Origin: Sphaerodactylus townsendi
Lineage: Eukaryota
Assembly (NCBI RefSeq): GCF_021028975.2
Contig: NC_059427.1
Coordinates: 159,650,001-159,714,000 of the forward strand
Direction: 5' to 3'
DNA: 64,000 nucleotides
Shown here: one piece after another, positions 11,042 to 12,011 of the stretch
Numbering within the stretch: the stretch's first letter is position 1
Layout: every line of letters starts with the position of its first letter
Translations under genes and position numbers: made by a program
The notes under the pieces: generated by a model
Databases searched by the model: none
What the model saw: the letters and a program-made list of their open reading frames with translations, nothing else
What the model was told of the DNA's origin: nothing

Positions 11042-11273
11042 ATGGCACACGGCTCTCCGGCGCACCAGACTGAACCGTTGGCACTGGTTTCCCAGCACTC
11101 TTCTGCCTTCTCCTCCAGCACCCCGCTCTACAGCGACTACCAGCCCCCGGCCTTGGACTTCATCCCTGTACCCCAGGCCGTCATCTACATGCTCATGGCT
11201 GTCATGGTGGTGGTAGGTGTGGCTTATGCCATCGTTGGTCACTTGATCAGGGACCTGGCACATGACCTGGCAG
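11042..11273 (+). CDS. SMIM44-like small integral membrane protein, first coding exon (77 codons + 1 nt)
   Basis: Kozak gggc[54 protein letters not shown] matches the recalled SMIM44 core (PLYEEYRPPPLD...[23 protein letters not shown]); donor CAG|gtgagt; candidate acceptors at 10985 or 11018. Confidence 0.8.
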
Positions 11274-11475
11274 GTGAGTTTTCAAAGCTGCGGAACTGAG
11301 GTGGTGTGCGAGGCGGAGATCGCAGGCCCTTGCGGATCTGGTTTGGGTACCGTTGGACTGGGGACACAGGTTGGTTGGGGCGGCGCACAAAAGGTCATGG
11401 GGTGGGGTGAACCTGGCCAGGCTAATAGGAATTCTGGACATTTCAGGCAGGAGCTCTGTTGAACAAGATGCCCTG

Positions 11476-11780
11476 GGCAGCAGTGGCGTAGGAGGTTAAG
11501 AGCTCGTGTATCTAATCTGGAGGAACCGGGTTTGATTCCCCGCTCTGCCGTTTGAACTGCTGGAGACTTTGCTCCTGGGACCTGGGATAGCCTGTACACT
11601 CCCACACACGCCAGCTGGGTGACTTTGGGCTCGTCACAGCTTCTCGGAGCTCTCTCAGCCCCACCCACCTCACAGGGTGTTTGTTGTGAGGGGGGAAGGG
11701 CAAGGAGATTGTTAGCCCCTTTGAGTCTCCTACAGGAGAGAAAGCGGGGATATAAATCCAAACTCTTCTTCTTCTTCTTC
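11476..11780 (+). mobile_element. Squam3-type SINE in the SMIM44-like intron
   Basis: Full head, CORE segment, (CTT)n tail. Confidence 0.85.
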
Positions 11781-11796
11781 CTTGTGTTGTTTCAAG

Positions 11797-12011
11797 ACAT
11801 TTCCTTGAATACACAGCTGACCTTTGGGAACACAGTGAAGACCAGTGGTGTACTGGGCCTAAATAGCGCTCGGGGGCATGACTGCCTCTCTGTTCTCCCC
11901 CCGCCCAGCTCCCTTTCCCCCCACCCGCTCATCTCCCTGTACCCCCCTTACAGGAGCCAGTGGGGACAGGCAGGACTCGGGGATACGCCCCATGTCCCAT
12001 TCTTCAGTTGA
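11797..12011 (+). CDS. Candidate terminal exon of the SMIM44-like gene (would give 148 aa in total)
   Basis: Acceptor ttgtgttgtttcaag; phase-1 join makes GAC, restoring the conserved D of DLAHDLAD; open to TGA at 12011. An alternative acceptor at 11953 is also plausible. Confidence 0.35.

Follow-up and report, generated by a model that had tools for sequence, protein, structure and literature searches.

A gene beside CALR in the gecko Sphaerodactylus townsendi probably encodes the core of an ancient paralogue of SMIM44

A short reading frame upstream of the calreticulin gene CALR in the gecko Sphaerodactylus townsendi encodes a peptide closely resembling human SMIM44, which raises the question of whether this locus holds SMIM44 itself, relocated, or a separate and older member of the same family. 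The frame lies in a 64,000-nucleotide stretch of contig NC_059427.1 (assembly GCF_021028975.2, forward strand, positions 159,650,001 to 159,714,000), hereafter the window, whose numbering is used throughout; positions elsewhere in the genome carry a contig handle (C3 being the one that holds the window). Our overall reading, in which we have good confidence, is that the exon is the membrane-spanning core of a SMIM44-family paralogue distinct from SMIM44, likely dating from the early vertebrate genome doublings and likely lost from mammals and birds, whose product is predicted to be a small single-pass accessory subunit.

The frame opens with an ATG at 11042 and runs for 85 codons on the plus strand to a TGA at 11297-11299. 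It includes a 12-residue motif at residues 28-39 (11123..11158; Y30, Y33 and P35 are present in 91-92% of 166 clade proteins), a hydrophobic stretch whose top 19-mer (residues 47-65) has a mean Kyte-Doolittle value of 2.65, and a further 12-residue peptide after it. A single transmembrane helix was assigned to residues 46-66 (11177..11239; Y49, A53, Y62, A63, I64 and G66 in 98-100% of the clade), followed by an 11-residue juxtamembrane amphipathic helix (11240..11272) recognized from an AlphaFold2 model and its hydrophobic moment. The main coding exon spans 10986..11273 on the plus strand, between an acceptor AG at 10984-10985 and a strong phase-1 donor at 11274 (CAG/GTGAGT, donor score 8.2), and the exon changes at the same residue in the spliced proteins of relatives and in both other gecko copies. 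Reading on in frame through the donor to the TGA (11274..11299) yields an 85-residue form that is already in public protein sets. The likely start codon (11042..11044) corresponds to the 'GM' methionine of two other geckos, and the frame at 10982-11044 is the window's top match to the N-terminal extension of Paroedura picta isoform X1 (tblastn E 0.014), one of two isoform models for that species.

Several comparisons bear on this exon. A profile of 14 relatives scored the main frame at 118.8 bits (E 3e-35), with the runner-up among 3172 window ORFs at 5.0, and the protein matched human SMIM44 by phmmer (E 3.3e-15) with 33 of 49 core residues identical, indicating that the SMIM44-family core is present. 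A UniRef record labelled Sphaerodactylus townsendi is identical to the window protein over its first 78 residues. Contigs from three of four DNA runs agree with the assembly letter for letter across the main exon, and the fourth has two extra differences and one extra gap at positions that are not given. The first coding exon, with its start at 11042 and donor at 11274, is genuine, and the well-formed exon with motif, transmembrane helix and following peptide described in the initial annotation is plainly visible.

The gene order is GCDH-type acyl-CoA dehydrogenase (plus), SYCE2 (minus), the window gene (plus), CALR (plus) and RAD23A, with an NFI gene 480 kb further. SYCE2 exons were identified just before the window, including one that matches PDB 6r17 (E 4.5e-9), and a candidate SYCE2 exon lies at 1502..1615 on the minus strand. 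A CpG island at 7501..8500 (plus strand; GC 0.58-0.71, CpG observed/expected 0.70-0.84) is a candidate promoter, perhaps shared head-to-head with SYCE2. Within it, a candidate upstream exon on the plus strand ends at 8065 before a GTGAG donor at 8066, with a putative link to the main exon; an ATG at 8025 is out of frame with the main ORF. Judged from sequence features, the island at 7.5-8.5 kb and the donor at 8066 are likely the promoter and first exon of the window gene. CALR occupies 24390..37016 on the plus strand (Pfam PF00262), its start codon 13.3 kb after that of the window gene. Its promoter region (24100-24300) combines multiple CCAAT boxes with a TATA box near 24290, in keeping with an ER-stress-responsive gene such as CALR. 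RAD23A is split, with exons 1-2 on the plus strand (39783-46460) and later exons on the minus strand (51243-59148) between N runs at 49147-49279 and 62236-62374; the later exons probably sit on a contig that was assembled in reverse orientation.

Whether the window gene is SMIM44 depends in part on what else the genome holds. Three significant matches were found among seven candidates, and two further queries agreed: the window gene (C3:159.66 Mb) and copies at C5:6.87 Mb (59%) and C5:72.12 Mb (45%). Weak matches on C7, C1, C15 and C6 were rejected as a fourth copy (≤9.3 bits against clade profiles). The copy at C5:6.87 Mb has two intact exons, with DOHH 12 kb upstream (PDB 4d4z, E 5e-54), and 5.5 kb downstream of it is a last exon of SMIM24 type (top-ranked among 6333 ORFs, scoring 65 vs 45); the part homologous to this exon in another species' fused model is Pfam MAP17. 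The transmembrane exon of SMIM24 was not found near this copy, where a MAP17 family search was also without a match. Beyond the copy are an MFS_2 gene and then a CDC20/Fizzy-type gene. According to the portions of PMC13268603 available, human SMIM44 sits among CELF5, NFIC, SMIM24, DOHH and FZR1. Hence, given its DOHH, SMIM24-type and Fizzy-type neighbors, the copy at C5:6.87 Mb is taken to be the SMIM44 orthologue, and the genes that accompany SMIM44 in human (DOHH, SMIM24, FZR1 and NFIC) are not the neighbors of the window gene. The initial annotation had anticipated a second genomic match near NFIC, where it placed SMIM44. Such a match does exist, beside DOHH and the SMIM24-type exon, but the nearest NFI gene is 4.1 Mb away, so SMIM44 does not adjoin an NFI gene in this gecko. 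Three public models fuse the first exon of SMIM44 to the adjoining SMIM24 (MAP17 family), either as an annotation artefact or as a read-through transcript.

In the third copy (C5:72123683-72154500), the second exon follows 30 kb after the first, and 130 kb away lies a GNT-I family gene, presumably POMGNT1. MAP17-, calreticulin-, CDC20- and NFI-type genes are found within 1-10 Mb. The helix-coding part of this copy is garbled in the assembly, and the gene is 97.8% identical over 89 residues to a protein matching named bird members, indicating very slow evolution. Across the genome, NFI genes (identified to family level) are located at C3:160.14, C5:11.0, C5:61.76 and C7:85.08 Mb, and calreticulin-type genes at C3:159.68, C5:5.04 and C5:67.55 Mb. 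The latter two are thus calreticulin-type genes beyond CALR, and the one at C5:67.55 Mb, which shares a segment with the third SMIM44-family gene, may be an ohnologue with no human counterpart. Two MAP17-family matches (C5:71112149 and C2:16135339) have identical score and span, and represent either a duplicate or an assembly duplication.

Phylogenetic analysis places the three gecko copies in three different clades. IQ-TREE was applied to full-length proteins in two trees (42 and 28 rows) of named, mostly full-length representatives of 375 proteins, and both trees resolved three groups, each tracking vertebrate phylogeny. The clade of the window gene (support 83/90 with 42 rows and 97/94 with 28) comprises geckos, other lizards, snakes, turtles, alligator, salamanders, frogs, sturgeon, gar, teleosts, sharks and rays. 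The SMIM44 clade (99/95 and 88/88) includes human, the gecko copy at C5:6.87 Mb, Eublepharis, Ascaphus, a caecilian, a loach and Callorhinchus, while the third clade was supported at 76/85 and 91/95. Two of the clades co-occur in Chiloscyllium, Hemitrygon, gar, Pleurodeles, Platysternon, Phrynocephalus and Paroedura. Cartilaginous fishes are represented in all three clades, which indicates that the duplication predates the split between sharks and bony fishes. In the 42-row tree, the hagfish row was a long branch inside the third clade and gave no usable root. Midpoint rooting of the 28-row tree paired the two non-mammalian clades (88/88).

These results leave very little room for the window gene being a translocated SMIM44 orthologue or a reptile-specific duplicate of SMIM44. 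What speaks for that reading is that the 49-residue core of the window protein shares more residues with human SMIM44 than that of the gecko orthologue does (33/49 vs 30/49), that a FastTree built on the core alone left mammals apart from the orthologue clade and that several turtle, snake and frog members carry the plain name SMIM44. The higher core identity accounts for these database names, and synteny overrides it: a syntenic two-exon orthologue is present on C5. In addition, the window clade takes in sharks and rays, and forcing mammalian SMIM44 together with four squamate window-type proteins cost 25 log-likelihood units and was rejected (p-AU 0.0065). We therefore regard the window gene, with high confidence, as a separate ancient paralogue distinct from SMIM44. 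The initial annotation had proposed such a separate member in the CALR/NFI region, with SMIM44 proper at another locus, and this is borne out by the trees and by the DOHH-linked copy on C5; a sole homologue grouping with mammalian SMIM44, which it had named as evidence to the contrary, was not what emerged. Its expectation of two family members was right about the separate member but fell short in number, as there are three paralogues and the third clade was unforeseen. Retention in squamates likewise held for lizards and snakes, although the gene is not limited to them, given its presence in turtles, alligator, amphibians, ray-finned fishes, sharks and rays.

How the three clades arose is addressed by their genomic surroundings. 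NFI and calreticulin-type genes are found near all three copies, at distances of 0.01-10 Mb (based on synteny in this genome only), so that the proposed membership in the NFI paralogon is supported, each copy being on a contig with both. From this shared company, it is highly probable that the three clades derive from the early vertebrate whole-genome doublings. In the portions of PMC8040251 available, paralogon 8 contains NFIB, NFIC, NFIA and NFIX as quadruplicates A-D (chicken chromosomes Z, 28, 8 and 30), related as ((A,B),(C,D)); SMIM44 is not among the supplement rows examined of that paper. That the two non-mammalian clades resemble each other more closely agrees with this topology, with the NFIB-linked copy lost. 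The alternative, that the clades came from local duplications followed by moves before the jawed-vertebrate radiation, draws on the large distances between NFI genes and two of the copies (4.1 and 10.4 Mb), on the lack of a fourth copy near the C7 NFI gene and on the unrooted tree. Against it, each copy shares its region with an NFI and a calreticulin-type gene, and both C5 copies also share segments with CDC20/Fizzy-type and MAP17-type genes. Moreover, three surviving copies are the commonest outcome in Lamb's set (631 trios vs 255 quartets in the part available). Local duplication thus appears quite unlikely.

The distribution of the clades points to losses. No mammal was found among the best 120 of 984 matches to the window-clade profile or among the best 120 of 291 matches to the alligator protein, and the mammal-type rows among 150 of 158 representatives clustered with human SMIM44 in a single group. 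In horse, the ordered gene list of PMC12291906 shows nothing but FARSA between SYCE2 and CALR. All three bird rows with names fell in the third clade, which extends from sharks to birds with no mammal among the matches listed, and no bird of the window clade was among the matches listed. Based on this absence among the matches listed, the window-type gene was likely lost in mammals and birds. The initial annotation had suggested a gene lost or unannotated in mammals; loss is the likely part, but "unannotated" does not describe it, as automated names exist for relatives. The portions of PMC12954441 available report that dot chromosomes, including chromosome 30, lost 29% of ohnologues. Absence from birds fits such dot-chromosome loss, and these chromosomes are also poorly sequenced.

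The gene as assembled is incomplete at its 3′ end. Full-length relatives run on with D(F/C/W)LLGPQP and close with the motif EVxIxL, and no acceptor between 10900 and 14500 yields that continuation. Acceptors at 11909, 11954 and 12811 were rejected as the start of exon 2, as the peptides were unrelated. Exon 2 was not found by tblastn and local alignment, and a frameshift-tolerant search of 11274-24400 returned only the null level. A squamate exon-2 profile that scored held-out gecko exons at 41 and 53 bits placed none of the 8298 ORFs from the 204 kb surrounding the window gene above 9.4 bits, and two queries found no match to exon 2 genome-wide. The exon beginning DxxxGP, conserved in the SMIM44 family, was thus not found in this assembly, in a region that contains an N run and blocks contradicted by contigs of the DNA runs.

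The first such block is in the intron (11311..11437) and is contradicted by all four DNA runs, with 21 shared substitutions (11315-11437) and 13-14 gap letters per record; it is likely a consensus error of the assembly. A second begins at 11970 in contigs of all four runs, and at 11970-12070 shows 29 shared substitutions and three gaps against the assembly (two runs compared in detail). Both blocks are approximately 100-130 bases long, with about a quarter to a third of letters different and matching flanks. When the DNA-run differences were substituted and read by hand, the conserved exon 2 was still not produced. The second block lies within a MITE-like element (11841..12182), which has a terminal inverted repeat of 8 bp and whose two ends recur elsewhere. 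This element also holds the supposed exon 11954-12011, which was rejected as conserved exon 2. The gene end at 12011 in the initial annotation is therefore unsupported, as its acceptor at 11954 is inside the element and the block is contradicted by DNA contigs. A public gene model of 110 residues, spliced at 11954, is built on the block at 11970-12070.

Further downstream, an N stretch at 12669..12754, either a mask or an assembly gap, is the sole N run between the main exon and CALR and is, for that reason, a candidate site of the missing exon. Bases 12710-12843 have almost no contig cover, which is not evidence of absence, as the filter drops records. Just 5′ of the N run, an AATAAA at 12623-12628 in AT-rich unique sequence could terminate a read-through transcript. 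A repeat element with an internal purine minisatellite occupies 12879-14068 (and, in reverse, 1-590); a 322-residue E/K/A-rich ORF at 13025-13993 was rejected as part of the window gene, being minisatellite within that repeat.

Two explanations for the missing exon were weighed. One is true truncation or decay in this gecko, in which exon 2 has been lost and at most the 85-residue read-through form, or splicing into the MITE, remains. The failure of searches over 204 kb and, with two queries, genome-wide is as this reading would have it, as are the AATAAA at 12623 and the fact that both public models for the species lack the conserved tail (85 residues by read-through and 110 residues spliced at 11954). 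It gains plausibility from the N-terminal sequon, which is missing from this gecko's protein alone among 12 squamate proteins. However, exon 1 is intact, the terminal branch of the window protein is short (0.15-0.19 in the gene trees) and every invariant residue is retained, while the very region concerned has an N run and proven disagreements with the DNA runs. The split RAD23A and the garbled helix of the third copy are further faults of this assembly. FARSA bears on this as well. In the portion of PMC12291906 available, the ordered gene list of the horse has FARSA alone between SYCE2 and CALR. In this gecko, FARSA was not seen in 11274-24390 or in the rest of the assembly by three weak family searches, the last of which had no positive control; as the gene is essential, the assembly has probably left it out. 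A gap at the N run would account for the absence of both exon 2 and FARSA. On balance, we consider truncation the less probable account and think it reasonably probable that exon 2 is missing because the assembly is faulty here.

The window gene is a new member of a known family of unstudied function, in which database names do not separate the three paralogues. Human SMIM44 (NP_001382883.1, UniRef A0A286YF18) shares with the window protein, besides the 33/49 core, the YxxYxPP motif, one helix, GHLI-DLAHDLA and an exon boundary at the same residue, but differs in locus (DOHH/SMIM24/NFIC vs SYCE2/CALR) and in clade. Window-clade proteins, unlike those of the SMIM44 clade, have PLPKAVLY-type helix starts, and they more often carry sequons (160/166 vs 33/107) and a cysteine after the helix (102/118 vs 6/40). 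Models named 'SMIM44-like' or si:dkey-61n16.5 (Paroedura LOC143833734, XP_077186021; gar W5MP67) belong to the same clade as the window gene; the Paroedura protein shares 44 of 49 core residues with it, and the relatives have the conserved second exon that this assembly lacks. The third clade (gecko C5:72.12 Mb and Paroedura LOC143835744, with bird, turtle, amphibian, gar and shark members) shares the core, exon boundary, PLPKAVLY and sequons (76/78), and differs in a longer, very slowly evolving N-terminus, a tryptophan in place of the cysteine after the helix, a 30-kb intron in this gecko and presence in birds.

In automated annotation, relatives go by the names 'SMIM44', 'SMIM44-like' or si:dkey-61n16.5, or appear as uncharacterised LOCs, and some window-clade models are mislabelled as cis-aconitate decarboxylase-like or otogelin. 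The window protein belongs to no Pfam family, and 32 members gave only weak membrane-protein matches against Pfam (best E 0.006). The protein had no PDB sequence match below E 0.67 and no Foldseek match, and the ESM Atlas returned SMIM44-type and unnamed chordate clusters only, with no usable named cluster. The available portions of PMC13268603 report that no literature on SMIM44 function was found. We found no full-text paper naming 'SMIM44-like' or 'dkey-61n16.5', none through a query on an NFI/calreticulin paralogon and no description of the paralogues in the full-text literature, outside which most subscription papers fall. Hence, the three-paralogue structure and the mammalian losses seem undescribed.

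Conserved features of the protein offer clues to how it may act. The AlphaFold2 model has a continuous helix over residues 45-84 (pLDDT 88-97 over 41-80), and the amphipathic stretch has a hydrophobic moment of 0.49 over 16 residues (shuffle p 0.025); a turtle model was confident in the helix only, and a homodimer prediction scored 0.02, which gives no answer either way. Of the 166 clade proteins, 160 have N-x-S/T sequons on the N side; the sites there number 253, vs 58 in shuffles and 19 on the C side. A cysteine directly follows the helix in 102 of 118 clade proteins that have exon 2. Residues Y49, A53, Y62, A63, I64, G66, H67, L68, D71, L72 and D75 are conserved in 98-100% of clade proteins; counts of this kind are not independent, as the proteins are related.

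From these features, we predict a single-pass protein with no signal peptide, whose short N-terminus would lie outside the cell or in the lumen and would be N-glycosylated in nearly all relatives. One helix would span the membrane and continue as an amphipathic helix on the cytosolic face, where the cysteine after the helix in most relatives could be palmitoylated, and the disordered tail carries a short EVxI motif. Residues of the near-invariant face (Y49, A53, Y62-L68, D71, L72 and D75) are predicted to contact a fixed partner, for example a transporter, channel or receptor, whose trafficking or activity this contact would govern. MAP17, KCNE and MRAP are accessory proteins that govern partner trafficking or activity in this way, and MAP17/SMIM24, KCNE and MRAP resemble the window protein in size, in having one helix and in their short flanks. 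The resemblance is one of analogy only, as searches of Pfam, PDB, Foldseek and the ESM Atlas found no sequence or fold link to any of them. By this analogy, an accessory-subunit mechanism with a glycosylated N-terminus outside is tentatively proposed.

The orientation itself can be argued both ways. In the window clade, the 15 residues that precede the helix have a mean charge of +1.5 and those that follow it -1.7, and the positive-inside rule favors a cytosolic N-terminus for such flanks. MRAP, moreover, has a dual topology together with an N-terminal sequon. The protein could accordingly be inserted in reverse, or in both directions as an antiparallel dimer in the manner of MRAP. The sequons argue against this, as the N side has four times as many of them as shuffles do and the C side almost none, and neither Pfam nor PDB yielded a link to MRAP. 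We therefore consider reversed or dual topology unlikely, and the outward, glycosylated N-terminus remains the tentative preference. A broader and distinctly speculative extension, which we think improbable, is that the family comprises three accessory membrane peptides of vertebrates, with neither a Pfam family nor a solved relative, and that SMIM44, the human gene, is the only one still found in mammals. The pair that mammals lost would be the glycosylated and more constrained members, and the conflicting topology signals would reflect an MRAP-like dual orientation regulating a receptor or transporter.

These results have consequences for how the family is named and studied, although the gain is modest because function is only inferred here. 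Genes called 'SMIM44' in turtles, snakes, frogs, birds and fishes are three different ancient genes, which matters for fish and frog models of the human gene; the zebrafish-style name si:dkey-61n16.5, borne here by gar and teleost proteins, marks a non-orthologue of SMIM44. The available portions of PMC12954441, an ohnologue survey starting from human genes, state that only those were considered, and human-based surveys of this type cannot, for that reason, see such losses. Finally, the residues that have stayed constant from sharks to humans probably mark a binding surface, and may provide a direct route to the function of SMIM44.
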